From positions 26,784,001-26,848,000 of the forward strand of contig OZ024752.1 in NCBI GenBank assembly GCA_964016885.1: a DNA stretch of 64,000 nt, in the 5' to 3' direction. Each line of letters starts with the position of its first letter. The first letter of the stretch is position 1. A program made the position numbers and the translations under genes. Below are positions 891 through 50,400 of this stretch, one piece after another. This DNA is from Eledone cirrhosa (Eukaryota). The notes beneath the pieces are model-generated. The model saw only the letters and a list, made by a program, of their open reading frames with translations. It did no database searches and was not told where the DNA came from.

Positions 891-959
891 AATTACCCTA
901 ATGCTATCCCTAACAACCATGCATCTACACACCATATTAACCGGCAAGCAAACAGCCAG

Positions 960-9850: not shown

Positions 9851-10192
9851 CGAAGGAAATGTGATAAGGAACCAGGTGGACCATAACGCACCAAAGTACT
9901 CAATACTTAGGGTAGTAGAGTGGGTAATAGGAACGAGTAGGACCCCGACGGCTGACCTCAAGCCGTCGGGGTCGAACTCGTTCCTATATATATATATTTA
10001 TTTATATATACATATATATATATATATAAATTAGAATTGGTGCTCTGAAATAGCGATATATATATATGAATGTATATATAGTGTATTTTGCAATACACTG
10101 TATGCTTAATTAAAAGCATTTTGAAGATCATACGCTATTGTTTTAAAGTAGTGACAATGTCACTTACTTAAATTTTTAGCAAACAGGGGAGA

Positions 10193-10241
10193 TAAGCTGA
10201 CAGAGCTCTGTTTCGTACTTGTTGCTACTTATCAAAGCTCA
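10193..10241 (-). ncRNA. Minimal type I hammerhead ribozyme, U3-A8 core variant
   Basis: Minus strand tgagct-TTGATAA-gtagcaacaagtac-GAAA-cagagctctg-TC-agctta; stem III is palindromic. Confidence 0.8.
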
Positions 10242-10509
10242 CTACTCTCCCTGTTGCTGAAAATTATGTGTGTTGGATTCTTATAGAATTCCAGTAATAA
10301 TCAGGAACTGATTATACAGAGCGGTCGCCGGTCCAGCAGAAATTGTATATTAGAATTGGTGCTCTGAAATAGCGATATATATATGAATGTATATATAGTG
10401 TATTTTGCAATACACTGTATGCTTAATTAAAAGCATTTTGAAGATCATACGCTATTGTTTTAAAGTAGTGATAATGTCACTTACTTGAATTTTCAGCAAA
10501 CAGGCGAGA

Positions 10510-10558
10510 TAAGCTGACAGAGCTCTGTTTCGTACTTGTTGGTACTTATCAAAGCTCA
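10510..10558 (-). ncRNA. Minimal type I hammerhead ribozyme, U3-A8 core variant
   Basis: As the previous copy, with a perfect gtac/gtac stem II. Confidence 0.85.
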
Positions 10559-10707
10559 CTACTCTCCTTGTTTGCTGAAAATTATGTGTGTTGGATTCTT
10601 ATAGAATTCCAGTAATAATCAGGAACTGATTATACAGAGCGGTCGCTGGTACAGCAGAAATTGAAAACTAGAATTGGTGTTCTGAAATAGTCCTGTTAAT
10701 GAAAATA

Positions 10708-11909: not shown

Positions 11910-14900
11910 CTAAAAGAAAAAAGAAATAAGTTCAAAGCATAGCAATTTTGTATTTATGAAAGAAATGAGTGAATGTGAGTGAATATGCTTGTGTTTGTAT
12001 AATAAATATATCACAGACACAAAGAAAAGCACATTGAAACATAGTTCTGAATGAAATATTAGATAAGACCTCTACCCCCCACCCACCACCAATAAACAAA
12101 TTTGATAAATAGAATATATTCCATGATGAATGGGGAACTCAGGACACTTCATCAAGTAGCTTTATCATTGATTTCCTAGACACAAATTTCTATAAAGAGT
12201 TTTGAATGATTAATTATTTAAAAATCGGTGAACTAATTATCCAAATATACAAGTAATTCAAATAATTAAACATTAATTTATAAACATTAAAGCATTTAGA
12301 AAGAAATCATGTTAATGTATTGCGAATTATGCTACTGAAATATCGTGGTGATTACTATATAGCTATATACTGCATCTCTTTATGGAGATATAGATTGGAT
12401 CAAACTGATTTATATATATTTTTTAATACTTCGAAATCAATATTGGGCAACAGAGTAACAATTGTAAACCAGCCAACAAATTTAAGTGAGACCTGATCAG
12501 TAGACAACATAGCTGCACAGATCAAACAACTTATTGATTTAATGATAAGATGTACAAAGTATATCTTCATATTTTGGTCACATTTGCCTCTTGACAAAAA
12601 TAGTGCAGATAATATCGCGCAATATTGCCGCTATCTCATACTAATGATTATCTCCGCTTTTGGCACAAGGGCTGCAATTATCCCAGTGCATTACTAGTGC
12701 TTTATTTTATCGACCCCGAAAGGATGAAAGGCAAAGCTAACCTCGGCGGGATTTGAATTCAGAGTGTAACAAACCGTAACAGAATGCCGCAAAGCATTTT
12801 GTCCGGCATTCTACTGAATCCACCAATCCACTGCCCTTACAATCTGAAAAAATGAAAGTTTCTAGTATTGTGTTTTTATTTTCGGATTTTTTTCAAATTT
12901 GTTATTCATTGTTTGCATTGATTAAATTATTCTAGAAAAGAAAAGATATATTATACATTCAAGAAAAGATGTAATGATTAATAGACAAAATAGAAATGTT
13001 GTTTCCTTACCAGGGATTTTTTCAACAGTTGGAATAATATTGGTGGTTGTTTCATTTAATGATATTCCAGTTCCTCTGGCTGATACAGATATGTTTAAAT
13101 CCGAAGGAATATGAATAAAATAAAAGTATAAAACAATATTTAAAATATGCTCAGCATAAAAGATAAAATGAAAATCTGCTTCGATTTCGGGATAAAATAT
13201 ATTATAAATCACAACATATGTGGACAGTATGAACAAATAAATATACTTGAAAATGAAGACACTTATTCCTTTACATCAAATATTTCAGTTTGAATTTGTT
13301 TACTTTATTTACATGACAACATTCAGGGTGCAAATATTTTCAGCCCAAATACTTTATTCTGAATGTAAAATTTAAAAATTACAAGAATATATTATATATA
13401 TTGATTTCTACAGCTGGATGCCCTTCCTAACACCAACTTCATTTACAGTGAGTACTAGGTACTTTTTTTTACCGTGGCGCCTACACGACCACTTTATAGT
13501 GTGGACTGGGTGATTTTTGTTGTGACACCTACACAATCACTTTATGGGGAGGCATACAGTCTATATATATATATTTATATATTTATATATACTTACGGTA
13601 AATATTGATGCAATTCAATTCAAGCACTCTACATACATTTTCCACATAGGAATGACAGAGTATATTTAGAATAAGGAAATGTGAAGTAGTTTCAAATTTA
13701 GGCAGAATCATGGTCACTGTCATCATTGAAATATGTATCACAACATTATCAATAAAGGACTTTAATATCTGAACCTACTTCGCATTTTCTTATTCTATAT
13801 ATATACATATATCATCATCATCATTATTTTACGTCCGCTTTTCCCTGCTTGCAAGGGTGGGACGTGTTCTATTCAGCACAGCATCTCTCCAGTTGTCATG
13901 GTCCTTTGTCATCTCCTCTGTGAGCTTCAGCAATCTGAGGTCTGCTCTCACCACCTCCGCCCATGTTTTTCGTGGTCTTCTCCTACTGCGCTGCCTCCTA
14001 CTGAGATTTCTTGGTACTTCTTTACCCAGCGGTCATCCTACATGCGCATCACATTTCCATACCATCGCAGTTTTCTCTCCTGCACACTACAATTTATCCC
14101 TCTTATACACAGTTTCTATTTCAACTCATCTATGCTTGTTCGTTCACGTACATTGGCATTGCATATCCAACGGAGCATGCTTGGTTCATTTCTCTTCAGC
14201 CGTCGTATATCCTCTACAGTTGCTGCCCATGTCACACTACCATGCAGCATCGCGCATCTCACACAGGTATCATATAATCGGCCTTTCGTATGCATGGAGA
14301 AATCCTTCTTTGTCAACAGAGGAAGAAGCTCCCTAAACTTCTTCCAACCCGTCCTTAATCTAGATACTATGGCCTTGGAACACCCCCTCCCATGCTAATC
14401 TGATCGCCTAGGAACCGGAAGTTATCAACCACTTCCATAGAACCCACCTGCATTTGAAAAGTGTGTCTATCACTGCGACATCTACTGTCAAATTTCCCTG
14501 TGCATCTACTGAATTTGTAGTTTTACCTACCTGTTAGTTTGCCTGCTATCCCACTACATCTCTTGTGTACCCAGGATCTGCATTGTGTTCATTTTATAGA
14601 ATTTATGCCAGCCCCTTTTCTACATACCGAACAAAGCCATTTCCCTGATGGAATCAGAGTTTTGTGCTCTGTTCTACTTATCAACACTTTTGTCTTAGCT
14701 AGGTTCACTCTCAATCCTATTGATTCCAAATACTGTGTCCATAGCCAGAATTTATTCTCTAGCTCCTCTACTGATTCTACTATAAGAACCAAATCGTCAG
14801 TATAGAGAAGTTCCCATGGGCAGCTAGTCTGAATCTCCTCTGTTATGGCTTGGAGGACTATAATGAAGAAGAAGGGGCTGAGGGCCGAACCCTGATGTAC

Positions 14901-15264
14901 TCCAACTTGTATCTGGAATTCCCTACTAAATTCCATTCCTACTCCCACTTTACTGACAGTACCCCTGTACATAGCTTGCATTGTCCTCACACGTCATTCC
15001 TTTACATCTAGTTGCTTTAGGGACCACCAGATGACAGATTGGGGTACCCTATCAAAGGCCTTCTCTAGGTCAACAAAAGCTAAGTATAGTGGCTTATTTT
15101 TCTGTAAGAACCTCTCTTGTAGTTGTCTCACTAAGAAGAGGGCATCTGTTGTACATTTTCCAGGCACAAAACCAAACAGCATCTTATCTAATTTGATGCT
15201 TTCTCTAATTAGTTGCACTAATATTCTTTCTGCCACTTTCATATATATATATATATATGAATAC

Positions 15265-15349
<85 letters not shown>

Positions 15350-18300
15350 CTCAGCAGAACACGGAACCTTTCTATGGATTTCACTGGCTTACTCGCCATC
15401 AGATTACATTGACTTTTATCTATGGCACAGTCCCTACCACCAAAGGTAGACAACACAGAAAACGTATATATATATATATCATCATCATCTTCATCATCAT
15501 TGTTTAACATCCATCTTCCACGCTAGCCTGGGTTAGATGGTCTTGTTCCGTTTGAAGTGGGAATGGTGGGGAGAACATGTCTCACTCACACAGAAGCGTC
15601 TCTGGCAGGTTTTTTACTGCTAGATGTCCTCCCTAACATCAACCCCGTTTACAGTGTATACTGAGAGCCTTTTCACCGTGTCTCCTACACAGCCACCTTA
15701 CAGTGTGAACTGTTGTGTCATCGACACAAGGGACGATACGGGAGAGGGAGGAAGGGGTAGGATGCGGGGTGGGGATACATTGGGTTAAGAGGTGCCTACT
15801 GACTGTAGTTTTGTATGCAATTGCAGTCGGGTCTTCTGTACAACTGCATGGCGCTAAAGGTCTCGATCTAGTGTCATTGTCTTAGAGACAATATGTATAT
15901 ATATATAACTGTTTCTACTTTTGGCACAAGGGCAGCAATTAACCAGTGCATTACTGGTACTTTTTTTTATCGACCCGGAAAGGATGAAAGGCAAAGCTAA
16001 CCTCGGCGGGATTTGAACTCAGAGTGTAACAAACCGTAACAGAATGCCGCAAAGCATTTTGTCCGGCATTCTACTGAATCCACCAATCCGAAAAATCCTT
16101 ACAATCTGAAAAAAATGAAAGTTTCTGGTATTGTGTTTTTATTTTCGGATTTTTTCAAATTTATTATTCATTGTTTGCATTGATTAAATTATTCTGGAAA
16201 AGAAAAGATATATTATACATTCAAGAAAAGATGTAATAATTAATAGACAAAATAGAAATGTTGATTCCTTACCAGGGATTTTTTCAACAGTTGGAATAAT
16301 ATTGGTGGTTGTTTCATTTAATGATATTCCAGTTCCTCTGGCTGATACAAATATGTTTAAATCCGAAGGAATATGAATAAAATAAAAGTATAAAACAATA
16401 TATAAAATATGCTCAGCATAAAAGATAAAATGAAAATCTGCTTCGATTTCGGGATAAAATATATTATAAATCACGACTTATGTGCACAGTATGAACAAAT
16501 ACATATACTTGAAAATGAAGACACTTAATCCTTTACATCAAATATTTCAGTTTGAATTTGTTTACTTTATTTACATGAAAACATTCAGGGTGCAAATATT
16601 TACAGCCCAAATACTTTATTCTCAAAGTAAAATTTAAAAATTACAAGAATATATTATATTATATAATATACCATGTATACGCACATATATATCATCATCA
16701 TATCATCACCGTTTTACATCCATTCTTCCACGCTAGCATGGGTTAGATGGGTTGTCCTGTTATGGGCAATGCCAGGTCAGGTGACCATGTCTTGCTAATA
16801 CGGAACTGATTTTGGCTTGATTTCTACAGCTGGATACCCTTCCTAACACCAACTTCATTTACAGTGAGTACTAGATACTTTTTATACCGTGGCGCCTACA
16901 CGACCACTTTACAGTGTGGACTGGGTGATTTTTGTTGTGACACCTACACAATCACTTTACGGGGAGGCATACAGTCTATATATATATTTATGTATACTTA
17001 CGGTAAACATTGATGCTTATTCAATTCAAGCACTCTACATACATTTTCCACATAGGAATGACAGAGTATATTTAGAATAAGGAAATGTGAAGTAGTTTCA
17101 AATGTTAAAGTCCTTTATTGATACGGCTGTGATAGATATTTCAATGACGACAGTTGCCACATGATTCCGCCTTATGAGATCATGGGACTTGTTAGGCAGA
17201 ATCGTAGTCACTGTCAGCATTGAAATATGTATCACAGCATTATCAATAAAGGACTTTAATATCTGAACCTACTTCGCATTTTCTTAATCTATATATATAT
17301 ATATATCATCATCATCATTACTTTACGTCCGCTTTTCCCTGCTTGCAAGGGTGGGATGTGTTCTATTCAGCACAGCATCTCTCCACTTGTCATGGTCCTT
17401 TGTCATCTCCTCTGTGAGCTTCAGCAATCTGAGGTCTGCTCTCACCTCTTCCGCCCATGTTTTTCGTTGTCTTCTACTGCGTATTCCTTCTACTGGGATT
17501 TATTGGTACTTCTTTACCCAGCGGTCATCCTACATGCGCATCACATTTCCATACCATCGCAGTCTTCTCTCCTGCACACTACAATTTATCCCTCTTATAC
17601 ACAGTTTCTATTTCAACTCATCTATGCTTGTTCGTTCACGCACATTTGCATTGCATATCCAACGGAGCATGCTTGGATCATTTCTCTTCAGCCGTCGTAT
17701 ATCCTCTACAGTTGCTGCCCATGTCACACTACCATGCAGCATCGCGCATCTCACACAGGTATCATATAATCGGCCTTTCGTATGCATGGAGAAACTCTTC
17801 TTTGTGAACAGAGGAAGAAGCTCCCTAAACTTCTTCCAACCCGTCCTTAATCTAGATACTACGGCCTTGGAACACCCCCCTCCCATGCTAATCTAATCAC
17901 CTAGGTACCGGAAGTTATCAACCACTTCCATAGAACCCACCTGCATTTGAAAAATGTGTCTATCACTGCGACATCTACTGTCAAATTTCCCTGTGCATCT
18001 ACTGAATTTGTAGTTTTTCCTACCTGTTAGTTTGCCTGCTATCCCACTACATCTCTTGTGTACCCAGGATCTGCTTTGTGTTCATTTTATAGAATTTATG
18101 CCAGCTCCTTTTCTACATACCGAACAAAGCCATTTCCCTGATGGAATCAGAGTTTTGTGTTCTGTTCTACTTATCAACACTTTTGTCTTAGCTAGGTTCA
18201 CTCTCAATCCTATTGATTCCAACTGCTGTGTCCATAGCCAGAATTTATTCTCTAGCTCCTCTACTGATTCTACTATAAGAAACAAATCTTCAGCATAGAG

Positions 18301-18757
18301 AAGTTCCCATGGGCAGCTAGTCTTAAACTCCTCTGTTATGGCTTGGAGGACTATAATGAAGAAGAAGGGGCTGAGGGCTGAACCCTGATGTACTCCTACT
18401 TGTATCTGGAATTCCCTACTAAATTCCATTCCTACTCCCACTTTACTGACAGTACCCCTGTACATAGCTTGCATTGTCCTCACACGCCATTCCTTTACAC
18501 CTAGTTTCTTTAGGGACCACCAGATGACAGATTGGGGTACCCTATCAAAGGCCTTCTCTAGGTCAACAAAAGCTAAGTATAGTAGCTTATTTTTCTGTAA
18601 GAACCTCTCTTGTAGTTGTCTCACTAAGAAGAGGGCATCTGTTGTACATTTTCCAGGCACAAAACCAAACAGCATCTTATCTAATTTGACCTTTTCTCTA
18701 ATTAGTTGCACTAATATTCTTTGGGCCACTTTCATATATATATATATATATGAATAC

Positions 18758-18795
<38 letters not shown>

Positions 18796-21700
18796 AACTC
18801 AGCAGAACACGGAACCTTTCTATGGATTTCACTGGCTTACTCGCCATCAGATTACATTGACTTTTATCTATGGCACAGTCCCTACCACCAAAGGTAGACA
18901 ACACAGAAAAAGTATATATATATATCATCATCATCTTCATCATCATTGTTTAACATCCATCTTCCACGCTAGCTTGGGTTAGATGGTCTTGTTCCGTTTG
19001 AAGTGGGAATGGTGGGGAGAACATGTCTCACTCACACAGAAGCGTCTCTGGCAGGTTTTTTTACTGCTAGATGTCCTCCCTAACATCAACCCCGTTTACA
19101 GTGTATACTGAGAGCCTTTTCACCGTGTCTCCTACACAGCCACCTTACAGTGTGAACTGTTGTGTCATCGACACAAGGGACGATACGGGAGAGGGAGGAA
19201 GGGGTAGGATGCGGGGTGGGGATACATTGGGTTAAGAGGTGCCTACTGACTGTAGTTTTGTATGCAATTGCAGTCGGGTCTTCTGTACAACTGCATGGCG
19301 CTAAAGGTCTCGATCTAGTGTCATTGTCTTAGAGACAATATGTATATATATATAACTGTTTCTACATTTGGCACAAGGGCAGCAATTAACCAGTGCATTA
19401 CTGGTACTTTTTTTTATCGACCCGGAAAGGATGAAAGGCAAAGCTAACCTCGGCGGGATTTGAACTCAGAGTGTAACAAACCGTAACAGAATGCCGCAAA
19501 GCATTTTGTCCGGCATTCTACTGAATCCACCAATCCGAAAAATCCTTACAATCTGAAAAAAATGAAAGTTTCTGGTATTGTGTTTTTATTTTCGGATTTT
19601 TTCAAATTTATTATTCATTGTTTGCATTGATTAAATTATTCTGGAAAAGAAAAGATATATTATACATTCAAGAAAAGATGTAATAATTAATAGACAAAAT
19701 AGAAACGTTGTTTCCTTACCAGGGATTTTTTCAACAGTTGGAATAATATTGGTGGTTGTTTCATTTAATGATATTCCAGTTCCTCTGGCTGATACAAATA
19801 TGTTTAAATCCGAAGGAATATGAATAAAATAAAAGTATAAAACAATATATAAAATATGCTCAGCATAAAAGATAAAATGAAAATCTGCTTCGATTTTGGG
19901 ATAAAATATATTATAAATCACAACTTATGTGGACAGTATGAACAAATAAATATACTTGAAAATGAAGACACTTAATCCCTTACATCAAATATTTCAGTTT
20001 GAATTTGTTTACTTTATTTACATGAAAACATTCAGGGTGCAAATATTTTCAGCCCAAATACTTTATTCTCAATGTAAAATTTAAAAATTACAAGAATATA
20101 TTATATTATATAATTGTTTATACTTTAGGCACAAGGCCAGCAATTACCCAGTGCATTACTGGTACTTTATTTTATCGACCCCGTAAGGATGAAAGGCAAA
20201 GTCAACCTCGGCGGGATTTGAACTCAGACCGTAAAGGGACGTAACTATGCTGGAAAGCATGGCGTCCGACCCTCTACCGATACTGCCAATCCACCGCCCT
20301 ATTATATATTATATTATATAATATACCATGTATACGCACATATATATCATCATCATATCATCACCGTTTTACATCCATTCTTCCACGCTAGCATGGGTTA
20401 GATGGGTTGTCCTGTTATGGGCAATGCCAGGTCAGGTGACCATGTCTTGGTAATACGGAACTGATTTTGGCTTGATTTCTACAGCTGGATGCCCTTCCTA
20501 ACACCAACTTCATTTACAGTGAGTCCTAGATACTTTTTTTATACCGTGGCGCCTACACGACCACTTTACAGTGTGGACTGGGTGATTTTTGTTGTGACAC
20601 CAATACAATCACTTTAGGGGAGGCATACAGTCTATATATATATTTATATATACTTACGGTAAACATTGATGCTTATTCAATTCAAGCACTCTACATACAT
20701 TTTCCACATAGGAATGACAGAGTATATTTAGAATAAGGAAATGTGAAGTAGTTTCAAATGTTAAAGTCCTTTATTGATACGGCTGTGATAGATATTTCAA
20801 TGACGACAGTTGCCACATGATTCCGCCTTATGAGATCATGGGACTTGTTAGGCAGAATCGTAGTCACTGTCAGCATTGAAATATGTATCACAGCATTATC
20901 AATAAAGGACTTTAATATCTGAACCTACTTCGCATTTTCTTAATCTATATATATATATATATCATCATCATCATTACTTTACGTCCGCTTTTCCCTGCTT
21001 GCAAGGGTGGGATGTGTTCTATTCAGCACAGCATCTCTCCACTTGTCATGGTCCTTTGTCATCTCCTCTGTGAGCTTCAGCAATCTGAGGTCTGCTCTCA
21101 CCTCTTCCGCCCATGTTTTTCGTTGTCTTCTACTGCGTATTCCTTCTACTGGGATTTCTTGGTACTTCTTTACCCAGCGGTCATCCTACATGCGCATCAC
21201 ATTTCCATACCATCGCAGTCTTCTCTCCTGCACACTACAATTTATCCCTCTTATACACAGTTTCTATTTCAACTCATCTATGCTTGTTCGTTCACGCACA
21301 TTGGCATTGCATATGGATCATTTCTCTTCAGCTGTCGTATATCCTCTACAGTTGCTGCCCATGTCACACTACCATGCAGCATCGCGCATCTCACACAGGT
21401 ATCATATAATCGGCCTTTCGTATGCATGGAGAAACCCTTCTTTGTGAACAGAGGAAGAAGCTCCCTAAACTTCTTCCAACCCGTCCTTAATCTAGATACT
21501 ATGGCCTTGGAACACCCCCCTCCCATGCTAATCTAATCACCTAGGTACCGGAAGTTATCAACCACTTCCATAGAACACACCTGCATTTGAAAAATATGTC
21601 TATCACTGCGACATCTACTGTCAAATTTCCCTGTGCATCTACTGAATTTGTAGTTTTTCCTACCTGTTAGTTTGCCTGCTATCCCACTACATCTCTTGTG

Positions 21701-24700
21701 TACCCAGGATCTGCTTTGTGTTCATTTTATAGAATTTATGCCAGCTCCTTTTCTACATACCGAACAAAGCCATTTCCCTGATGGAATCAGAGTTTTGTGT
21801 TCTGTTCTACTTATCAACACTTTTGTCTTAGCTAGGTTCACTCTCAATCCTATTGATTCCAACTGCTGTGTCCATAGCCAGAATTTATTCTCTAGCTCCT
21901 CTACTGATTCTACTATAAGAACCAAATCTTCAGCATAGAGAAGTTCCCATGGGCAGCTAGTCATAAACTCCTCTGTTATGGCTTGGAGGACTATAATGAA
22001 GAAGAAGGGGCTGAGGGCCGAACCCTGATGTACTCCAACTTGTATCTGGAATTCCCTACTAAATTCCATTCCTACTCCCACTTTACTGACAGTACCCCTG
22101 TACATAGCTTGCATTGTCCTCACACGCCATTCCTTTACACCTAGTTCCTTTAGGGACCACCAGATGACAGATTGGGGTACCCTATCAAAGGCCTTCTCTA
22201 GGTCAACAAAAGCTAAGTATAGTGGCTTATTTTTCTGTAAGAACCTCTCTTGTAGTTGTCTCACTAAGAAGAGGGCATCTGTTGTACATTTTCCAGGCAC
22301 AAAACCAAACAGCATCTTATCTAATTTGATCTTTTCTCTAATTAGTTGCACTAATATTCTTTGTGCCACTTTCATATATATATATATATATGAATACCTA
22401 ATATATATATATATATATATGTTTTAACTCAGCAGAACACGGAACCTTTCTATGGATTTCACTGGCTTACTCGCCATCAGATTACATTGACTTTTATCTA
22501 TGGCACAGTCCCTACCACCAAAGGTAGACAACACAGAAAAAGTATATATATATATATATATCATCATCATCTTCATCATCATTGTTTAACATCCATCTTC
22601 CACGCTAGCTTGGGTTAGATGGTCTTGTTCCGTTTGAAGTGGGAATGGTGGGGAGAACATGTCTCACTCACACAGAAGCGTCTCTGGCAGGTTTTTTTAC
22701 TGCTAGATGTCCTCCCTAACATCAACCCCGTTTACAGTGTATACTGAGAGCCTTTTCACCTTGTCTCCTACACAACCACCTTACAGTGTGAACTGTTGTG
22801 TCATCGACACAAGGGACGATACGGGAGAGGGAGGAAGGGGTAGGATGCGGGGTGGGGATACATTGGGTTAAGAGGTGCCTACTGACTGTAGTTTTGTATG
22901 CAATTGCAGTCGGGTCTTCTGTACAACTGCATGGCGCTAAAGGTCTCGATCTAGTGTCATTGTCTTAGAGACAATATGTATATATATATAACTGTTTCTA
23001 CTTTTGGCACAAGGGCAGCAATTAACCAGTGCATTACTGGTACTTTTTTTTATCGACCCGGAAAGGATGAAAGGCAAAGCTAACCTCGGTGGGATTTGAA
23101 CTCAGAGTGTAACAAACCGTAACAGAATGCCGCAAAGCATTTTGTCCGGCATTCTACTGAATCCACCAATCCGAAAAATCCTTACAATCTGAAAAAAATG
23201 AAAGTTTCTGGTATTGTGTTTTTATTTTCGGATTTTTTCAAATTTATTATTCATTGTTTGCATTGATTAAATTATTCTGGAAAAGAAAAGATATATTATA
23301 CATTCAAGAAAAGATGTAATAATTAATAGACAAAATAGAAATGTTGTTTCCTTACCAGGGATTTTTTCAACAGTTGGAATAATATTGGTGGTTGTTTCAT
23401 TTAATGATATTCCAGTTCCTCTGGCTGATATAAATATGTTTAAATCCGAAGGAATATGAATAAAATAAAAGTATAAAACAATATATAAAATATGCTCAGC
23501 ATAAAAGATAAAATGAAAATCTGCTTCGATTTCGGGATAAAATATATTATAAATCACAACTTATGTAGGACAGTATGAACAAATACATATACTTGAAAAT
23601 GAAGACACTTAATCCTTTACATCAAATATTTCAGTTTGAATTTGTTTACTTTATTTACATGAAAACATTCAGGGTGCAAATATTTTCAGCCCAAATACTT
23701 TATTCTCAAAGTAAAATTTAAAAATTACAAGAATATATTATATTATATAATATACACATGTATATATATATCATCATCATATCATCACCGTTTTACATCC
23801 ATTCTTCCACGCTAGCATGGGTTAGATGAGTTGTCCTGTTATGGGCAATGCCAGGTCAGGTGACCATGTCTTGCTAATACAGAACTGATTTTGGCTTGAT
23901 TTCTACAGCTGGATGCCCTTCCTAACACCAACTTCATTTACAGTGAGTACTAGGTACTTTTTTTTACCCTGGCGCCTACACGACCACTTTACAGTGTGGA
24001 CTGGGTGATTTTTGTTGCGACACCTACACAATCACTTTACGGGGAGGCATACAGTCTATACATATATATTTGTATATACTTACGGTAAACATTGATGCAA
24101 TTCAATCAAGCACTCTACATACATTTTCCACATAGGAATGACAGAGTATATTTAGAAAAAGGAAATGTGAAGTAGTTTCAAATGTTAAAGTCCTTTATTG
24201 ATACGGCTGTGATAGATATTTCAATGACGACAGTTGCCACATGATTCCGCCTTATGAGATCATGGGACTTGTTAGTTAGAATTGGGGTTCACTGTCATCA
24301 TTGAAATATGTATCACAACATTATCAATAAAGGACTTTAATACCTGAACCTACTTCGCTTTTTCTTAATATATATATCTACATATATCATCATCATTATT
24401 TTACGTCCGATTGTCCCTGCTTGCAAGGGTGGGATGTGTTCTATTCAGCACAGCATCTCTCCACTTGTCATGGTCCTTTGTCATCTCCTCTGTGAGCTTC
24501 AGCAATCTGAGGTCTGCTCTCACCTCTTCCGCCCATGTTTTTCGTTGTCTTCTACTGCGTATTCCTTCTACTGGGATTTCTTGGTACTTCTTTACCCAGC
24601 GGTCATCCTACATGCGCATCACATTTCCATACCATCGCAGTCTTCTCTCCTGCACACTACAATTTATCCCTCTTATACACAGTTTCTATTTCAACTCATC

Positions 24701-25790
24701 TATGCTTGTTCGTTCACGCACATTGGCATTGCATATCCAACGGAGCATGCTTGGTTCATTTCGCTTCAGCCGTCGTATATCCTCTACAGTTGCTGCCCAT
24801 GTCACACTACCATGCAGCATCGCGCATCTCACACAGGTATCATATAATCGGCCTTTCGTATGCATGGAGAAACCCTTCTTTGTGAACAGAGGAAGAAGCT
24901 CCCTAACCTTCTTCCAACCCTTCCTTAATCTAGATACTATGGCCTTGGAACACCCCCCTCCCATGCTAATCTGATCACCTAGGAACCGGAAGTTATCAAC
25001 CACTTCCATAGAACCCACCTGCATTTGAAAAGTGTGTCTATCACTGCGACATCTACTGTCAAATTTCCCTGTGCATCTACTGAATTTGTAGTTTGCCTGC
25101 AATCCCACTACATCTCTTGTGTACCCAGGATCTGCTTTGTGTTCATTTTATAGAATTTATGCCAGCTCCTTTTCTACATACCGAACAAAGCCATTCCCCT
25201 GATGGAATCAGAGTTTTGTGCTCTGTTCTACTTATCAACACTTTTGTCTTTGCTAGGTTCACTCTCAATCCTATTGATTCCAACTGCTGTGTCCATAGCC
25301 AGAATTTATTCTCTAGCTCCTCTACTGATTCTACTATAAGAACCAAATCGCCAGCATAGAGAAGTTCCCATGGGCAGCTAGTCTTAAACTCCTCTGTTAA
25401 TGCTTGGAGGACTATAATGAAGAAGAAGGGGCTGAGGGCCGAACCCTGATGTACTCCTACTTGTATCTGGAATTCCCTACTAAATTCCATTTCTACTCCC
25501 ACTTTACTGACAGTACCCCTGTACATAGCTTGCATTGTCCTCACACGCCATTACTTTACACCTAGTTGCTTTTGGGGACCACCAGATGACAGATTGGGGT
25601 ACCCTATCAAAGGCCTTCTCTAGGTCAACAAAAGCTAAGTATAGTGGCTTATTTTTCTGTAAGAACCTCTCTTGTAGTTGTCTCACTAAGAAGAGGGCAT
25701 CTGTTGTACATTTTCCAAGCACAAAACCAAACTGCATCTTATCTAATTTGATCCTTTCTCTAATCAGTTGCACTAATATTCTTTCTGCCA

Positions 25791-25854
<64 letters not shown>

Positions 25855-28640
25855 GTATTAACTCAGCAGAACACGGAACCTTTCTATGGATTTCACTGGT
25901 TTACTCGCCATCAGATTACATTGACTTTCATCTACGGCACAGTCCCTACCACCAAAGGTAGACCACACAGAAAAAGTATATATATATATATATATATATC
26001 ATCATCATCTTCATCATTATTGTTTAACATCAATCTTCCACGCTAGCCTGGGTTAGATGGTCTTGTTCCGTTTGATGTGGGAATGGTGGGGAGAACATGT
26101 CTCACTCACACAGAAGCGTCTCTGGCAGGTGTTTTACTTCTAGATGTCCTCCCTAACATCAACCCCGTTTACAGTGTATACTGGGAGCCTTTTCACCGTG
26201 TCTCCTACACGACCACCTTACAGTGTGAACTGTTGTCTCATCGATACAGGGGACGATACGGGAGAGAGAGGAAGGGGTAGGATGCGGGTGGGTATACATT
26301 GGGTTAAGAGGTACCTACTGACTGTAGTTTTGTATGCAATGGCAGTCGGGTCTTCTGTACAACTGCATGGTGCCAAATGTCTCGATCTAGTGTCATTGTC
26401 TTAGAGACAATATGTATATATATATAATTGTTTCTACTTTTGGCACAAGGCCAGCAATTATCAAGTGCATTACTGGTACTTTATTTTATCGAACCCGTAA
26501 TCAAATTTCACGTAGTTTAGGAGTGCAGACTTATGTTTTGAATGAAAAAAATACTTTGGGGATGAAAAGAGGTCAAGCCAGTGAAAGGTACACGGAAATT
26601 TGATGTTATTAAAGTATAATGTTAAAAACGAAGGAAAATAAAATTTTAGGGTAAGGTTACTAGTGAGAAATACCAATCTTATTTAAACCACAAGGAATCT
26701 AGATCTATAACAAGAAATTAAATTAATTGATAGGGATAAATTTATATTAATTCATATGAATGTGATAAATAAGAATTAGATGTTATTAAAAACGAAGAGT
26801 GTTGTTATAACGAAGGAAAGTAACATTTTGGGATAGGTGTAGTAGTGAGAAATACCAATCTTATATAAACTACAAGGAATCTAGATTGATAACAGGAAAT
26901 TAAATTAATTTATAGGTATAGTTTTAGGTATTAATTTTAGGAAAAGAGAGCTGTAAGAGCGAAATAAAATTATAAAGTTCTCTGTAGTAAAGTACTAATT
27001 ATAGGTTAACTAAATTAAAACAAACAATTATAATAATATGTAAAATATAAGTGTTATATTAATTAGGTTTATAATATTTGAAGGTTCTGCTAATTCTATG
27101 ATTGAAAGATATAATTAATTCCTGTCGCTTATTTAATAGGATATCCTTAGATTTCATGATTTTAAAAAGTTCCTGGGAGCATAATCTACACTCGTATCTG
27201 TTATTTTAAGGACCACCAGATGACAGATCGGGGTACCCTATCAAAGGCCTTCTCTAGGTCAACAAAGGCTAAGTATAGTAGCTTATTTATCTGTAAGAAC
27301 CTCTCTTGCAATTGTCTCACCAAGAAGAGGGCATCTGTTGTACTCTTCCCAGGCACAAAACCAAATTGCATCTCATCTAGTTTGACCCTTTCTCTAATTA
27401 GTTGTGCTAATATCCTTTCTGCCACTTTCATAGCCTGATCCATCAGTTTTATACCCCAATAATTGCTCCTCTCCAGAGCATCCCCTTTACCTTTGTAGCA
27501 ATTTATGAGAATACTGCTGCACCAGTCTTTGGGTATGACACCACCATATATAGCCTGATTGATGATGCGTGCAACCAGTTTAGTGCCTACGTCCCCTGAT
27601 GCCTTCAGCACCTCAGCAACTATTCCCGATGGTCCAGCAGCCTTACCACTTTTCATTTCCTTAAACGCCTCTTGGACCCTATATTCGTCAATCTCAATAG
27701 CTGGTCCCTCTGTCGGATCTACTGAGGGTAATTTCTCTCTCTCCCATTCGTTCTCCACATTCATCAGTCTCTCATAATTACATTTCCAGGCCTCCTTTTT
27801 CTGATCATTCGCTACACTAAGTACAACGGCATCGTTCCGGACACATTTATCTCCAACAACATCCTGATTTGCATTGACACACTGCCTTGCAATGTGAAAC
27901 ACAGCACGCCTCTGATCTTCCCATCGCAGAACATTGGCAAACCTCCTACTCTCAGCCTCCCTGCGTGCTAAGTACACCTGACGTCTAGCTTCTCTGTTAG
28001 CGGCTGTATATTCTTCCCTACTCCCACCCTTTTCCAAGCCTTCCATGCTAGTCTTTTGTCTCTAATGGCCTTTACTGTGCTGTTCCACCACCAGGTCACT
28101 CTCTGTCTGGTTGGAGCTCAGTAGCCTGCAGTAAGTTGTCACGTAAGAAATTCCAGTTATTATCTATGTCATACGTCTCTAAATCGTCTTCTTTTTCGTC
28201 ATACACATCTTGAAGTGCTTTCCTAAATTTGTATTTTAGTGAAAGGTCTTTTAGCTTCCAGACCTTTCTTCTCCACACCTTCCTGTATGTCTCATTCCAT
28301 CTCTTGCTTACTGAGATATCACTAACGACTAACCTATGCTGTGGGGTACATTCTTCCCCAGGGTATGCCTTGGTATTAAACACCATCTGCCTGTCCCGCT
28401 GCCTAACTAGTAAGAAGTCAATCAATTTGTAGGTTATTAGGTGGTTGACAGGTTTCTGGAAGTTTGTGTTGCAATAGTCAGTGTACCTGCATCACAAAAT
28501 TCAAGAAGTTTCACTCCTTCATTTCTTGAGTCGTAACCGTGCCCACCATGTACACAAGTGTAACCATCCTGCAGCTATCCAACATGACCATTGAAGTCCC
28601 CTGCTAGCATAACGATGTCTCCGTCCTCTGTCATTGTGGT

Positions 28641-31906: not shown

Positions 31907-34143
31907 GAAGAATGATAAAATTTCAAGCAAAGAGTTTAATTAGGTATATTTTGTAATATTATTAACTAATTATTATAATTAACGCGCATATTTTGCTATC
32001 CTCAAACACGTTTACACATGGCATGAAATATAACTAATCCGAGATGGCTAGGTTTCATCTTCTAACTGGATAAACGAAATCCATTATGTCTTGACAACAA
32101 CATGAGGTAACATTATGTTATTCACAGACACACTTTGTACACTGTTCCATATCAGAATGTATTTCCTTCGTCACATTCACAAACAGTATTGAAAATATGT
32201 TCTTCGGCAAATAAAAATGTTTTGTTCATAATATTTCAACTAGCGATTGCTCTACTCCACGCACGACCACCATAAATTAATGACCAGCTCAACACAAGTA
32301 TTGGTAGAGCGTCAGACACCATGCTTTGCAGTATTGTTATGGTCCTTTGCATTCTAAGTTCAAATCCTGCCGAGGTTAACTTCGACTTTCATACTTACTA
32401 ATTCGATAAAATAAAGTACCAGTAATGGACTGCCGTAATGGATTTGTGCCGAAAAATAGAAACACTATTAATGTGCAATACGAGCAAAATATAACGACAT
32501 TGCTCAATTATTTTATCTAATGTTGTAATAACACAAGGAAATGTTGTTTGTGTATTTTTTTTTATATTTGCTCATAGGCTTTTACAATTTCGCTCAGCCA
32601 ACAACTATTAAAAAGTGAGTTGCTTAAGATAACAATTTAATCACAAATTGTTGCTATCTTTTAATACACTCCAACAAGTCATCAAATTATGTACAATAAA
32701 AACAAATCTTATTAATTTGCTCAGGGAATATAAAGAAAATGTATATACACTGATAATTGCAAATGTATGTAAATATTTTGTTTTTGTATTGTATATTTTA
32801 TGTTTTCTATTATGTATAATATATTGATTTAATATTGATTGTTTTTTGTAGTTGTTTATATTAAAAGTCTGAAAATATTTTTATACATCTTACACTAATA
32901 TTTATAAGATAATTTATAATAACAATTACATAATCTAATTACATTACAACGATAATTTATTATTAATATATATCCTGTTTAACTAGAGTTATTACAAGCG
33001 TTGCCTTAAAAAAATATTAAACTAGACATGAAAAATGCGCAAGCTCAAAAGTGCCACAGAATGTTATAATAAACCTTCAAAAGTGTGGGACTAGAGTTGT
33101 TGCTAAAAAATATTGTAATCATTATATATCGTACATTCTGTGGCATCCTTTATAAAAATAGCTTAAACCAACGAAGCCTTTATTTTTACGCTATTTCACT
33201 TAGTTAATTCTTAGAGTGTAACATATAAAAATAAATACATCTATGTTTAATGTAATAACAGCTATAAATAATTACGTAATATTATTATCATATACTCATA
33301 GTAACAAAATAATTGTGTTGAAACTTAATATGATGCTTATATGAACGATCAAATCTATAATGATAATTTCTTAAATATACTAATAGTAAAATAATTTAGT
33401 TATCTATTGTTACATTTTCATAGAACTATAATATTAACAATCGTATTGCATTATCAAATTTTTATCACTACAAACTTTCATATTGGAATTACCTTAAGCC
33501 ACTTATTATTACTTCGCTTTCGTACTTTTACAGCTGTAGATATTGCGCTGTATCTTATATCTAATATCAATATCTCGTGGTAATTTGCATGAAGTGTAAA
33601 ATAGGTTTATTAATAACTTTAATATGAAATGTATTATACAGGGCTGCGGAGTCGGTCAAAAATTGACTGGCTCCAACTCAGGATCCGATACTCCATTATT
33701 TCCTAAATTTCAGCTCCGCAGCTCTGTTATTATATTAATTAATTTATTTTATAGTTGTAAATCATATTTTTATATGTTACACTCTAAGAATTAACTAAGT
33801 GAAATAGCGTAAAAATAAAGGCTTCGTTGGTTTAAGCTATTTTTATAAAGGATGCCACAGAATGTACGATATATAATGATTACAATATTTTTTAGCAACA
33901 ACTCTAGTCCCACACTTTTGAAGGTTTATTATAACATTCTGTGGCACTTTTGAGCTTGCGCATTTTTCATGTCTAGTATATATATATTATATATATATAT
34001 TATATATGTATATTATGTGTGTCTATATATATGTACATATATATAGGTTTAAGTGTGTATGTGCGTGTGTATGTGTGTGCGTGCGTGTGTTATATATATG
34101 GGTGTGTTATATATGTGTGTGTGTGTATATATATAATATATAT

Positions 34144-37899: not shown

Positions 37900-38387
37900 T
37901 GGTGGAACACTGGAAGGTAATATCCGTAGGGGTAGCGCACTCAGTCCAAGGGACGAGTTAGTTAGAAGTGGTTACAGAACAGTTAGTTCACCATACCGAG
38001 AACAATTGTTTCACCTTCGCGGATCTTCAGCTCGGGATGTGTATGGTTATAGAAACAGCTGTCGGAGAGGACGAAGGTGTTATTAGAAGACCTAAATTTC
38101 TTAATATCGTTTCTGAGTTTCGTTTGAAAGGTGTTAGTGTGTTTGCGAAAGGAAATGTTAGCGACTAAGTAAAGAAAGTCCGTCTCGAAAAGAGCAAGTT
38201 CGGTTACCTTAGGAGGGTAGGCTCTCGATTTCAGGTTGAAGGTGTTGTTGGTGCCTGTAATTTTGCCGTCGAAAGCTAGGGCTCGCCATCTTAACGCTGT
38301 TTCTATAACCATACACATCCCGAGCTGAAGATCCGCAAAGGTGAAACAATTGTTCTCGGTATGGTGAACTAACTGTTGTGTAACCAC

Positions 38388-41400: not shown

Positions 41401-44400
41401 TGCCAGAGAGAGAGTAACACATTATAGTTAGTTTTAGTCTCAGTGTGCAAAACACGTATCTGCTACACAGTATCTTATTGTCACCACAGTGTTTAAAGCG
41501 TGTGTTTAGTGAAATCTTACACCCGCAAATCGACCTCAGCTTTCTATCTACAAACATATATATAGAACTTCTATTAGATAATTATGTACGCTTCCATCAC
41601 TTGTATTACTATGTAAATCAAGGTAGCCTAACTTAGTTGCAAGATGTTTGTGTATTTTATAAGTAGTTATGCTGTATCATGCACTTTGTGGTATGAAAGT
41701 TGGGTACATTGTTTAGAGCTTGTAATTCTCGCTGCAATAAAGGTTGAAGTAAGTAGAATATTCTATATTCTTTTCCTGAATAACTTGACTAATGAAAAGT
41801 TGTGATTATTTTCACCAGAAAAAAGAGGAATCACGATAAAAACTAAATAATTAAAATCAAAATAAGTTGCCTATTTTTCTCTTTTTATTTTTTCTTCATA
41901 ATTCGGAAATCACAATTTTAAATAATCCACGCTAGTGTGTACTTACGCATCTCTAATAGTTTGAATGGTAGTAATGGTGGTCCTAATGATCTAACTTCAT
42001 ATACTGTTGTCAAGTATTCAGCTACAAATAGAACAGAAATGAATATATAATATATCAATCAATTACTCACACTCAGACATGCATGTACATACTCACACAC
42101 ACATATATATATATATATATATGGGAGCAAAGATTAGAAATACAGAGGATGATGTAGTGGAGAGGAAGAAAAAAGCCTGGGCGGTGTGTCGCATTAAGAC
42201 CTGAATATCTGTCTCTTTGTCTCCACAGTGGAGTCTGCGCTGTTGTACTGGTCTGAAACTTGGACACGTACCAAAGACTCACTCAGATGGTCGCTGGGTG
42301 CTAAAAGAGGTAACTATAAAAAAACCAAGGTAGGCAACTTGTGTTTCACAGGGTTAATTTGATAAGTCGAAGAAAATAAATTCAATTAATTCAGACTAGA
42401 CCATTTTCCATAACAAATTTTGCTTCATGTGGGCAGCGACTGAAGTGGTCAAAGCGCGTATTTAAGCAGCGAATCCCTGAAGCCAGTTATGAGAGTATAT
42501 TCCACTTTTCTGAGTTACACAGCTGGCAACATTTTGTTTCATTGACATATGAGGTAGATTTTTCCAGTATCCTCCATTTAAGGGAGAACGCTGGGCCGTA
42601 AAGCATAACACACAAACATATGAATGTTGTGACGAACAGAATAATATATATTATAAAAATTAGAATTGGAGCTCTGAAATAGCAATATATATATGGATGT
42701 ATATATAATGTATTTTGCAATACACTTTATGCTTAATTAAAAGCATTTTGAAGACTGTAAGCTATTGTTTTAAAGTAGTGACAAATTCACTCACTTTGAT
42801 CTCAGCAAACAGGGGAGATAAGCCGACAAGACTTGTTTCGCTTTGGTTGAAGCTTATCAAGGCCAACTACCCCACCTGTCTGCTGAGATCATTGATGTTA
42901 TATTCTTATAGTGTATTGCAAAATACATTATATATACATCCATATATATATTGCTATTTCAGAGCTCCAATTCTAATTTTTAATTTCTGCCTGACCAACA
43001 ACCGCTCTGCATAATCAGCTCCTGATTATTTACTAGATTTCTATAAGAATATAACATCAATGATCTCAGCAGACAGGTGGGGTAGTTGGCCTTGATAAGC
43101 TTCAACCAAAGCGAAACAAGTCTTGTCGGCTTATCTCCCCTGTTTGCTGAGATCAAAGTGAGTGAATTTGTCACTACTTTAAAACAATAGCTTACGGTCT
43201 TCAAAATGCTTTTAATTAAGCATAAAGTGTATTGCAAAATACATTATATATACATCCATATATTATAAAAGTTTAAAAGTAGATTATCAGTAAATTCAAC
43301 AGGTTTTCATATTTTATATACTATCATATGTATTATCATTGATAAAATAATTTTCCATTGATTTTTTCTTTCATATTTTAGCATAATCTACTTTATTTCT
43401 TGTTATAAAAAATTTGAACTTCAAAGCAATTAGACAATTGCCATATATGTATATATATCAATGGTTTATTTTGAGTGTGGGTGTGTCAGGAGAATCAGGT
43501 AGTCGTAAAATAGAAGAGAATACTACTATGGAAAAGCGCCTAAGTTATAAATCTCTCAGATTAACATGAAAACACATATCTAACAAAGCAACTAGACAAT
43601 GGCAAACATTCTTTATGTATGGCTACAGGAAAAACATGATTTTGAGTGATATATGTATATGTGAAGTCAATTATAGTTTCTGACTTTCTGAGATAAACAA
43701 TTCGTGGCAACAAAAAAAAAGAAGAATGACAAATTAAATGATATGTCTATATAGCATCAATTTGATCCTTATGAATATGAATTAAAGTGGCATGAAGTAT
43801 AAAATTACCTTCTTCAAAATGTTCCTCTTTAACGTAGGCTTTCTCGACAACCATTGATGTTAGTGGAGTTACAAAATTATACTGTCAAAATAAACACTAT
43901 TAACGTTTAGCAAAAGAAAAATATTTCTTGAAATATGTTAAAGCAATAAATGGAAATATTTCACATAATTTGAATTCTAAATTATCGATCTCGTGTTTTC
44001 TTTGCTGGTATAATTTAGATAGTAATAAATAAGGTTCAAAAGCAGTGAAAAAGACAATAGAATGACATATTCATTGTATTACGCTATTTAGCTTCATCCA
44101 TCTTTGTTCTAAATTCAAATCGAATCATAGTCTACTCTATTTTTTTCTCAGTTGATTATGAGATAATTATCACTGATATACTGGTATCAAGGTAATAAAT
44201 GCCATCTCGTTTCTATAAGTATTCACTTTATGCTTAAGGAATATCTTTATAAATCATGATTTCAACCTTTTTTAAAAACTATAGGTAGTATCTATCATTA
44301 GACATATGTTAATAAAACGGCGAAAATATTAATATTTATCTAAAAATACTTCCATCATGATTTTATATAAGAACCTTTGTTAAGTAGGTAGCTGGTTAGT

Positions 44401-47400: not shown

Positions 47401-50400
47401 GTCGTATGACATATGCACAATAGTTAGAAAGGCAGATTGAGATTAGCAAGCCAGACTAAGGCATCATCATCATCATCATCATTATACGTCCGCTTCTCCT
47501 TGCTTCCAAGGTTGGGACGGTAACTGATTCTGGCTTGATCTCTACAGCTGGATGCCCTTCCTAACACCAACCTCATTTACAGTGAGTGCTGGGTGCTTTT
47601 TTGCCGTGACACCTCCACGTCCCATTTACAGTGTGGGCTGGGTACTTATTTTGCCGTGGCACCTCCACGACCACTTTGCAGTGGAATGATAGGGACCCCA
47701 TTCCTATCATCTCATTTCTACAGCTGAGTAAACTGGAGCAATGTGAAATAAAGTGTCTTGCTCAAGGAAACAACACATCACCCGGTCTGAGAATTGAACT
47801 CAACATTTCGATTGCAAGCCCAATGCTCTAACCATTAAGCCATGCGCATCATTTCTAGTATTATGGATTGCCTCTAGGCTGCCAGGAAAACGTCTGAAGG
47901 GGCAATCCTGAACATCATGCAGCACTGTCTGATCAAGTCCCTACAGTCATATGTTAGGCTGTCTTTCATTTTCCATTGATGTAAATGATGGGCTGTCTGG
48001 GCATGTGTTGTGTGGATCTGATTCATAGTGGGAGACGGCAACCTACATGTGGCCCACCCTGTACAGGATTTGTTCCAACTAATGCCATTGCTCGGCATGT
48101 GCACCACCACGAAGAAGAAGAAGAAGAAGAAGAAGAAGAAGAAGAAGGAGGAGGAGGAGGAGGAGGAGGAGGAGGAGGAGGAGGTGGAGGTGGAGGAGGA
48201 GGAGGAGGAGGAGGAGGAGGATGAGGAGGAGGAGGAGGAGGAGGAGGAGGAGGAGGAGGAGGAGGAGGAGGAGGAGGAGGAGGAGGAGGAGGAGGAGGAG
48301 GAGGAGGAGGAGGAGGAGAAGGAGAAGAAGAAGAAGAAGAAGAAGAAGAAGAAGAAGAAGAAGAAGAAGAAGAAGAAGAAGAAGAAGAAGAAGAAGAAGA
48401 AGAAGAAGAAGAAGAAGAAGATTCATTCAGGCTATGTTTTGCATCGTCTCTTCTGTCTTACAAATGTTCCATGTATGAAATGTGCTATTACTAATGAAAT
48501 GTATTCTTAGATCAACTCACTGGTTTGAAACTAAAATCAAAACAATAGAAATATAAACTTTAACTTACCTCCTTTGACTGCAAGTTTACCAATGTAATTT
48601 TTAGCTAATTGTTTGTTAACTTCATTAGCTTTTAAAAATATGTTCTTGATCCACGAAACTTTTCTGCTGAAGACTCCAATAAGAAATTCATCAAGTTCTG
48701 GATCAAGTTGATCAATTATCATGATCATAGCTTCTTTTAATTGTTTCATTTTGGTTCCAGACATTGATTTACTGATGTCAAGCATAAATACAATGTCCTT
48801 TTTTAAGCTTGGCACGGAATCAATAGAAAAAAAGTGTACAAAGTAGCCATCAAGCGCCTATAAATGGAGGGTTGAGAAATAGAACAGTAAGGATGATTTG
48901 ATTTAATAATTCACAGCAAAAGAATATTACCACAATGATTTAACCTTAGATATTGAACATATACATAGCAATCATTAAAGTTTGATTACTTAACATGTTA
49001 AACATATATTGATATATTATATTATTATATTTGGGGATGGTCATTTTGCCAATTTTGCCAATAAAAATACATGCACTATGCGATTTTCACTTCAGTTTTA
49101 TCGTTGGTTATTAGTTAATTCCTCAAAGCTCTTTCATCACACATTCCCTGATCTTCTCAATGACATTTGGTTTTCTCTTTGTCACCTCTTCTTTTTGGAC
49201 ATGTAATGATATTTCATAATTTCATGTGAATTTCTTTCATGTTGTTTTTAGTTTAGTAGTTTTGTTATGTTGATATGGACACACTATCTATCAAGGTTGC
49301 GTTGTATTGCACAGCTAGTCGCTTTTCAAAATATCTTATTGCTACAGATTCCATGAATTTACCGACTACGTTTTTAGTACATTTGAATATAGAGTAGAAT
49401 TTTTTTCTAATATAATACAATGTTATTATTCTTTCGCAAGGCGGTGGATTGGCAGTATCGGTGGAGGGTCGGACACCATGCTTTCCAGCGTAGTTACGTC
49501 CCTTTACGATCTGAGTTCAAATCCCGCCGAGGTTGACTTTGCCTTTCATCCTTACGGGGTCGATAAAATAAAGTACCAGTAATGCACTGGATAATTGCTG
49601 GCCTTGTGCCTAAAGTAGAAACAATTATTCTTTCGCATGACTCATCCATACTTAGTATATGGGACATGATTGAATTATATATTTTTAGTTTTCGGATATA
49701 TTCAAATATAATGCAAATTTGTGTGATCAAATGTTCACTTTAAAAAAGTAGGGGATCGCTGTATATAAATGCATTTGTCTGAAAGGATTAGTATCCATGA
49801 ATTTTTGTTGACCGTAATACACCTTTTAGGCCTACCATACATTTCTACGGTAGCTTTGACTAACGGAATATATGTACAGAATTCAGGTAACTAGTGCATA
49901 GTACATCTAGTGCATAGTACAACTAGTGCATAGTACGGCTAGTGCATAGTACATCTAGTGCATAGTACAACTAGTGCATAGTACAACTAGTGCATAGTAC
50001 ATCTAAAATAACTAGCTATATTATTTGGTTAATTACCGATACCTATTTTCTGACAATCCGTCTAGGATTTGACACGGTAGTGAAAATTTCCACTGTGGTA
50101 GTCCAGCCATTATTGCTAAAAACCCTCAGTTGCATTATACATGAGCTCAGCGAAAAACATTGGGGTCCACATTATTTGTGATTATAATTTTTCCTTTAGT
50201 TCTTCTCCTTCACACATAGAAAATAATTGTTTCTGATTTAAGCACAAGGCCAACAATTTTAAGGGAGGAGAAAGTCAATTAAATCGACCCTGATGCATTA
50301 CCAGAGCTTTATTTCATCGACCCTCAAAGGAGGAAAGGAAAAGCTAATCTCGCCGGGATTTGAAAATAATAAAACATCACACCCTCAAACGCAGCTGATA

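Follow-up and report, generated by a model that had tools for sequence, protein, structure and literature searches.

A hammerhead-bearing tandem repeat with Penelope-type insertion footprints in the octopod Eledone cirrhosa, likely a retrozyme with a predicted self-pairing block

Two loci in a 64,000-nucleotide stretch of the Eledone cirrhosa genome (contig OZ024752.1, positions 26,784,001 to 26,848,000; the whole stretch is called the window here) carry a repeat with type I hammerhead ribozyme motifs, and the locus near 43 kb is probably a recent insertion of a retrozyme that was mobilised in trans by a Penelope-type enzyme, next to an endonuclease remnant that likely goes back to an older Hydra insertion. 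The hammerhead repeat is real, structurally conserved and of an already known kind, and its cleavage is predicted. The rare U3-A8 core, the pairs of hammerheads on opposite strands and the association with Penelope elements have already been published; a predicted inactive fold (off-fold) that would be released in tandem dimers is possibly new. A retrozyme-sized unit with Penelope-specific footprints bears on the hypothesis that Penelope enzymes move animal retrozymes, and this family also provides a precise and cheap test case for a self-pairing lock.

When both strands of the window were scanned, four hammerhead motifs of type I were detected (Table 1). All four have the U3-A8 pair at positions 3-8, G12-A13-A14-A15.1 and U16.1-H17, and the blocks TTGATAA, GAAA and GTC are identical among them, in agreement with an earlier note on this DNA, whose placement of the cleavage position at C43127 was also confirmed by the motif scan (C17). 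Natural U3-A8 covariation has been described by Perreault et al. (PMC3088659), and such cores were active in vitro. The 43 kb hammerhead has stem I GGCC/GGCT, stem II GCTT/AAGC with a 6-nt loop and a near-palindromic helix III, and in the plus arm its outer helix spans approximately 43061-43155. A relaxed descriptor recovered three of the four motifs, missing the 10.2 kb one because its rule of four pairs in stem II is not satisfied there; in 30 dinucleotide-shuffled windows there were one relaxed and no strict matches. At gathering thresholds, an Rfam scan of the whole window recovered none of the four motifs, and a permissive scan gave Hammerhead_HH9 (RF02275; E 0.0012). HH9 resembles the unit hammerhead in type I topology, stem II, a CAAnnA loop and GUA/UA bulges around stem I, whereas the latter, at 24.6 bits, stays far below the gathering score of 52 and differs in its U3-A8 core and shorter proximal stem I. 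As C3-G8 descriptors would miss cores starting with U and the Rfam gathering thresholds missed all four motifs, the number of such families in cephalopods may be underestimated. Rfam matches to MIR7533 were discarded as an artefact of the 43 kb inverted repeat. Pattern scans for extra copies returned nothing from metagenome contigs (0 and 0), prokaryote genomes (0) or viral contigs (0). Similar variants may reportedly already be contained in the work of Lunse et al. 2017.

Table 1. Hammerhead-bearing repeats, insertion marks and the adjoining endonuclease remnant, in window coordinates
Feature	Position	Strand	Remarks
Hammerhead, 43 kb plus arm	43088..43131	+	motif 43092-43127; core 43092-43098; predicted cut after C43127
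Hammerhead, 43 kb minus arm	42821..42864	-	motif 42860-42825; identical to the plus-arm one; core from 42860, C17 = 42825
Hammerhead, second variant	10512..10556	-	motif 10552-10516; stem I AGCT/AGCT; stem II GTAC/GTAC; helix III perfect 10-nt palindrome
Hammerhead, second variant	10195..10239	-	motif 10235-10199; stem II gtag/gtac, G.G mismatch closes stem II
Head-to-tail dimer of unit	10027..10690	-	hammerheads 317 bp apart; 3' end enters (TA)n
Plus arm	42907..43263	+	~1.13 monomers of 316 bp unit, 41 bp terminal direct repeat
Minus arm	42654..42911	-	inverted copy, 5'-truncated; unit positions 43041-43263, then next monomer
Inversion junction	42907..42911	.	single; microhomology 2 bp exact, 4/5 overall
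3' tail, one arm only	42654..42688	-	~35 bp; same endpoint as 10 kb insertion
Target-site duplication, left, probable	42646..42658	+	13 bp; last 5 bases also readable as element end
Target-site duplication, right, probable	43258..43270	+	first 6 bases also readable as element end
GIY-YIG endonuclease fragment, C-terminal, degenerate	42391..42588	-	65 codons, internal stop 42489-42487
Fragment's own 3' flank	42309..42390	-	common to other genomic copies; unrelated to 316 bp unit

It had also been proposed that all three stems differ between the copies and yet remain paired, which holds for stems I and II. Between the variant at 43 kb and that at 10.5 kb, 9 of 16 bases of these two stems differed and all 8 pairs were retained, a result matched by random placement of the changes in 210-890 of 400,000 trials. 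Stem II is changed on both sides at three of its four pairs around a constant core. In a count over only three related sequences, 5 of 23 pairs had both bases replaced, a number reached by 3 of 500 shuffles, and the two broken pair cells both belong to the 10.2 kb copy. The stem II pairing gtac/gtac, which had been attributed to both 10 kb copies, is correct only at 10.5 kb, as the 10.2 kb copy has a mismatch. Regarding stem III, the pairings cagag/ctctg and caag/cttg can be full only between two molecules, because they would otherwise leave 0- and 1-nt loops, and owing to an indel helix III was scored at three invariant pairs only. The 10 kb and 43 kb copies are 82-84% identical, and since the two motifs at 43 kb form the arms of a single inverted repeat, the covariation comprises only two independent variants; within this limit it supports selection on the hammerhead structure. 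In read snippets of other copies, the same core is accompanied by AGCC as an additional form of stem I and by GCAT as another stem II start.

The hammerheads sit in a unit with a period of 317 bp at 10 kb and 316 bp at 43 kb, a GC content of 34.7% and one type I hammerhead per monomer. Metazoan non-LTR retrozymes were defined by Cervera & de la Pena 2020 (PMC7229834; this and the other papers are cited from their accessible parts), and the unit is similar to them in being a tandem non-coding repeat within the size range of about 150-450 bp, in having less than 50% GC and a type I hammerhead, in its strongly self-paired predicted circle and probable large target duplication, and in the proposed Penelope-like mobilisation. 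The predicted circular fold of the unit has a z of about -6.5, and none of 100 shuffles was equally stable. No coding homology was detected in the unit by tblastn with 126 endonuclease/RT homologues (E<0.01), ORFs with RT and GIY-YIG domains are absent between and within the repeats at both window loci, and no autonomous partner element was identified in the window. The U3-A8 core, the 10-nt palindromic helix III and the predicted self-pairing block distinguish the unit from these retrozymes. Altogether, the unit is likely a non-LTR retrozyme, and by analogy with the published families it would be expected to give rise to linear as well as circular RNAs of monomer length. An AT-rich frame of 28 codons in its 3' part (42746-42660 on the minus strand and 43206-43263 on the plus strand), which ends in the tail, is probably due to chance because it overlaps small hairpins.

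The unit is very abundant in the sequence data: in run X1, the summed contig depth, which is not equivalent to copy number, was approximately 5-6 for unique contigs, 268-1,392 for the endonuclease remnant and 23,690-287,448 for the unit. Pieces of the unit of 122 and 104 bases in run X4 had no differences from the window. A literature search that covered few subscription papers found neither an octopus retrozyme nor a description of this U3-A8 repeat family, and ribozymes are not mentioned in the accessible part of the Octopus vulgaris repeat annotation (PMC13282606).

The structure of the 43 kb locus indicates how the unit may have been inserted. The plus arm stops about 35 bp short of the longer 3' end of the unit, and the two arms differ at one position in 223 bp. 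A doubly inverted layout suggesting template switching had been described for this locus; a double inversion was rejected, as the only junction is that at 42907-42911 and the apparent second inverted pair is produced by the minus arm, which extends into the next monomer, and template switching is plausible at this one junction. Thirteen X1 contigs stop at 42652, with a TA-rich flank. At three junctions from two divergent variants the tail leads straight into the start of the unit, and X4 contigs covering 42910-43030 also display this direct continuation, which therefore points to a repeating template of 317 nt without an ORF. The 13-mer of the probable target-site duplication occurs twice in the window, bracketing both arms, and 11 of its 13 bases overlap element ends; none of 306 control segments reached a repeat of 13 bp, many of them reaching 12 through TA runs. 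At the 10 kb dimer, no target duplication of at least 6 bp was found. Non-LTR retrozymes by definition lack LTRs, primer-binding sites and polypurine tracts, and their target duplications, where there are any, exceed 4 bp. According to Craig et al. 2021 (PMC8557442), insertions of Penelope-like elements typically consist of partial tandems with inverted 5'-truncated copies and a one-sided tail of 30-40 bp, and a partial tandem, an inverted 5'-truncated copy, a one-sided tail and an AT-rich target are all present here. The tail has been tied to two internal RT start sites by Frangieh et al. (PMC11167929), who also demonstrated AT-rich targeting. With a tail on one arm only, an inversion and TA-rich targets, the unit thus likely has a Penelope connection. 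Read-end pile-ups in the RAD-seq run X18 (42664, 42738, 42982, 43039 and 43217) were not accepted as element boundaries, and the AATT/TTAA words found there suggest that they are likely restriction-site ends.

The Penelope-type tail and inversion would also be expected if the unit were the pLTR of an autonomous Penelope-like element located outside the window, with the tandems as solo 5'-truncated products. U3-A8 cores and opposite-strand pairs were reported in Schistosoma Penelope hammerheads (Cervera & de la Pena 2014, PMC4209133), and the hammerheads of Schistosoma Cercyon and other Penelope pLTRs are similar to that of the unit in the U3-A8 core, a palindromic helix III implying cleavage in dimers, the G10.1-C11.1 pair, opposite-strand pairs 100-700 bp apart and many compensatory changes. 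In addition, a preprint by Li et al. (bioRxiv 10.64898/2026.07.22.740005) connects retrozymes to pLTRs, the two being related in Xenopus. However, the junctions between tail and unit start, including those in the X4 contigs, imply a repeating template without an ORF, and the unit has no coding homology. Furthermore, the Penelope pLTR hammerheads are minimal, with a helix II of 7-8 bp and an extra base after position 9, whereas the unit hammerhead has an HH9-like stem II of 4 bp with a 6-nt loop, as suits canonical hammerheads, no extra base, an extended helix I and no attached ORF. We consider a pLTR origin unlikely and favour a retrozyme moved in trans.

The Penelope endonuclease fragment that had been noticed beside the repeat is real: a profile of 126 homologues matches it with an E value of 6e-22. 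These homologues remained from 131 proteins matching the fragment at E<=0.001 after five matches to repeat proteins had been dropped (P0002 and P0003, the top two, as well as P0054, P0118 and P0127). The fragment can be aligned at 37% identity with the C-terminal 60 residues of an RT-endonuclease protein of 723 aa and contains the pattern CxxC..E..N..CxH, which is shared by 121 of the 126 homologues; the same pattern, in which CxxC and CxH flank a conserved E and N, was described for the Hydra clade (Craig et al., PMC8557442). RT motifs, DKT and a CxCX5C linker were recognised by eye in the longest homologue, P0075. Hydra-1_Obim from Octopus bimaculoides is similar to the fragment in its C-terminal CxxC..E..N..CxH pattern and in (TA)n targeting, whereas the fragment differs from Hydra elements in its remaining length and internal stop (Table 1). 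Judged from its sequence, the fragment is likely the remnant of a Penelope-like element of the Hydra clade. No RT sequence remains at the 43 kb locus; Pfam gave only a weak match of the fragment to DUF5113, and a word-index search with it returned no matches.

The attachment of the hammerheads to this endonuclease, which the earlier note had assumed, is not supported. The fragment has a 3' flank of its own, which other X1 copies keep down to 42309-42372 while differing by about 14-19%, and neither the fragment nor this flank has nucleotide similarity to the unit. It is located outside the probable target duplication, and no significant endonuclease homology was found past the rejoined empty site. 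Its contig depth in run X1 is about 20- to 1000-fold below that of the unit; 15 of the 40 variants listed (302 in total) fall in the remnant and its flank, and in nearly all of these 15 most of the X1 depth departs from the window. The Hydra hammerheads in file S2 of Craig et al. are C3-G8 in 26 of 26 rows, in contrast to U3-A8 in the unit, and two words of 9-14 bases from the unit are absent from the accessible part of that supplement. The endonuclease fragment is likely an older and separate Hydra insertion, and its adjacency to the unit may be explained by a common preference for TA-rich DNA.

A joint insertion of fragment and repeat could also be envisaged, in which the reverse transcriptase of a Hydra element first copied the 3' end of the element's own RNA and subsequently moved on to a retrozyme RNA as template. 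The two lie on the same strand with 65 bp between them, Hydra elements are known to target (TA)n, and an alternative 7 bp repeat at 42315/43264 would bracket both. Nevertheless, the 13 bp duplication brackets the unit alone (the 7 bp word occurs 52 times in the window), the endonuclease is decayed whereas the arms are nearly identical, and nothing joins endonuclease to unit in other copies among the pieces and the 15 of 29 joints listed. The published Hydra hammerheads, with their C3-G8 cores and, for Hydra-1_oBim, a location 3' of the ORF, also argue against such an event, which appears improbable to us; separate insertions are preferred.

Three other remnants of Hydra-type Penelope elements were observed in the window (891-1438 on the plus strand, 27062-27250 and 38058-38294 on the minus strand). 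The first is a frameshifted linker and endonuclease beside a long (TA)n tract, and the remaining pieces are another endonuclease C-terminus and an N-terminal piece; the 316 bp unit is found beside none of the three. A short degenerate LINE-like fragment at 42126-42310 (plus strand) abuts the 3' end of the Hydra remnant at 43 kb and contains LLYWSETWT, which we take to resemble an RTE-type RT motif. No hammerhead was found in the 3' flank of this remnant or near the other Hydra remnants in the window. A GAAAC..AGTT stretch in that flank (42330-42350, minus strand), without a recognisable 5' core, resembles the 3' half of the Hydra hammerheads in file S2 of Craig et al.

Most metazoan retrozyme circles, with the exception of some from mussels, were predicted to leave the ribozyme free to fold, and the mechanism that prevents their self-cleavage was left open (Cervera & de la Pena 2020, PMC7229834). 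In the unit, folding predicts an off-fold in which the 5' half of helix III base-pairs with the 5' strand of stem I and with U3-U4-G5. In 100-nt fragments as well as whole circles, the active single-motif fold would lie above the minimum by 6.2 kcal/mol at 43 kb and by 5.7 kcal/mol at 10.5 kb, and the predicted probability of the off-pair G5-C15.2 is 0.96-0.99. Neither tertiary contacts nor magnesium enter into these energies or into those given below for other forms and for tandems. In the 10.5 kb variant, eight pairs are predicted between stem I plus U3-U4-G5 and the helix III palindrome because the centre of the palindrome is identical in sequence to stem I. For the 43 kb locus, the read table contains a one-base insertion (63 and 36 reads) and T43121C (107 reads), and a snippet supported by two reads has a GGCC centre in the helix III palindrome; a palindrome with this centre is implied for the 43 kb variant, provided that the changes are linked in single reads, and would form seven off-pairs with a predicted gap of 9.1 kcal/mol. 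The palindrome centre would thus follow stem I in both variants (AGCU with AGCU and, as implied by reads, GGCC with GGCC).

In a test devised after the folds had been seen, 16 of 1,500 random palindromes reached the gap of the 10.5 kb variant (median 0.0), and the gap disappeared when this motif was given stem I of the other variant. The native 43 kb copy gave a weaker control, with 77 of 1,000 reaching its gap (median 2.9). In silico reversion to C3-G8 lowered the off-pairing from 0.96 to 0.14 in the 43 kb variant and raised the lock from 5.7 to 8.4 kcal/mol in the 10.5 kb variant, suggesting that U3 is only partly coupled to the lock. In tandems, a double hammerhead is predicted to be 9-17 kcal/mol better than two single ones and to equal the minimum or to lie at most 4 kcal/mol from it; in the natural 10 kb tandem, it would beat two singles by 11 kcal/mol and lie 2.8 kcal/mol above the minimum-energy fold. 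A tentative interpretation, which we put forward as a possibility, is that this octopod retrozyme has evolved a hammerhead switch, in which covariation between palindrome centre and stem I would lock monomers and circles while tandems unlock as doubles. If true, it would explain what keeps retrozyme circles from cleaving themselves in one animal family. For comparison, eight of nine Xenopus retrozyme dimers tested were uncleaved and cleavage occurred in one (bioRxiv 10.64898/2026.07.22.740005).

That the unit is by now a SINE-like or satellite repeat with a dead relic hammerhead, its covariation and off-fold resulting from palindrome-perfecting mutation or from having two samples, would agree with the short palindromes that make up each strand of stem I and the centre of helix III, the 5.7-6.2 kcal/mol needed for the active single-molecule fold, the stem II mismatch at 10.2 kb, the imperfect 43 kb palindrome and the finding that PAc insertion in vitro did not need hammerhead cleavage (Frangieh et al., PMC11167929), and is nonetheless very improbable in view of the two-sided changes at three of four stem II pairs with a constant core and of the AGCC and GCAT forms around the same core in reads of other copies.

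For a retrozyme mobilised in trans, the following cycle may be proposed, in which transcription, cleavage and circularisation of the unit RNA are drawn from the literature. Tandem transcripts would cleave themselves into monomers as double hammerheads, and the resulting monomers and circles would stay in the off-fold. A Penelope-type reverse transcriptase-endonuclease acting in trans could then copy the unit RNA back into TA-rich DNA, where, following published models, two internal start sites of reverse transcription would produce the one-sided tail and a single template or strand switch the inverted arm. In a read-through transcript of the 43 kb locus, the arms would likely pair as a duplex of 223 bp and thereby silence the ribozyme. 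If the cycle is correct, the tails and inversions would directly record in the genome that a Penelope enzyme had mobilised the unit in trans.

Both loci are located near exons of a host gene. An exon at 46.6-47.3 kb had its top matches among inter-alpha-trypsin inhibitor heavy chains of Octopus and Argonauta, and exons similar to inter-alpha-trypsin inhibitor heavy chain 4 extend on the minus strand from 57320 down to the one at 43884-43810, possibly to 11803. A possible exon at 11910-11803 was found by one of three queries, and together with the exons down to 43810 it suggests that the 43 kb locus is probably intronic. This locus begins approximately 550 bp downstream of one exon, and the dimer at 10 kb about 1.1 kb downstream of the possible exon at 11910-11803, the last one found; a hammerhead in the sense of the gene is present at each.

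Several other repeats occur in the window. An array of tandem segmental copies at 12657-27912 (3.4-4.1 kb each, approximately 95% identical) contains RT fragments; LINE-like RT ORFs to which it is related lie at 53.2-55.1 kb and 59-60.5 kb. Fragmented ORFs at 4367-9130 (plus strand) resemble, by eye, what we take to be Helitron Rep/helicase. A young inverted repeat at 33011-33988, whose arms of about 223 bp are 98.7% identical, is unrelated to the hammerhead unit. A tRNA-like sequence at 47788-47842 (minus strand; 29.4 bits, at the Rfam threshold) is likely a SINE head, and a separate SINE-like repeat of approximately 190 bp is found at 10806, 20110, 29200, 40884, 46185, 49440 and 62125.
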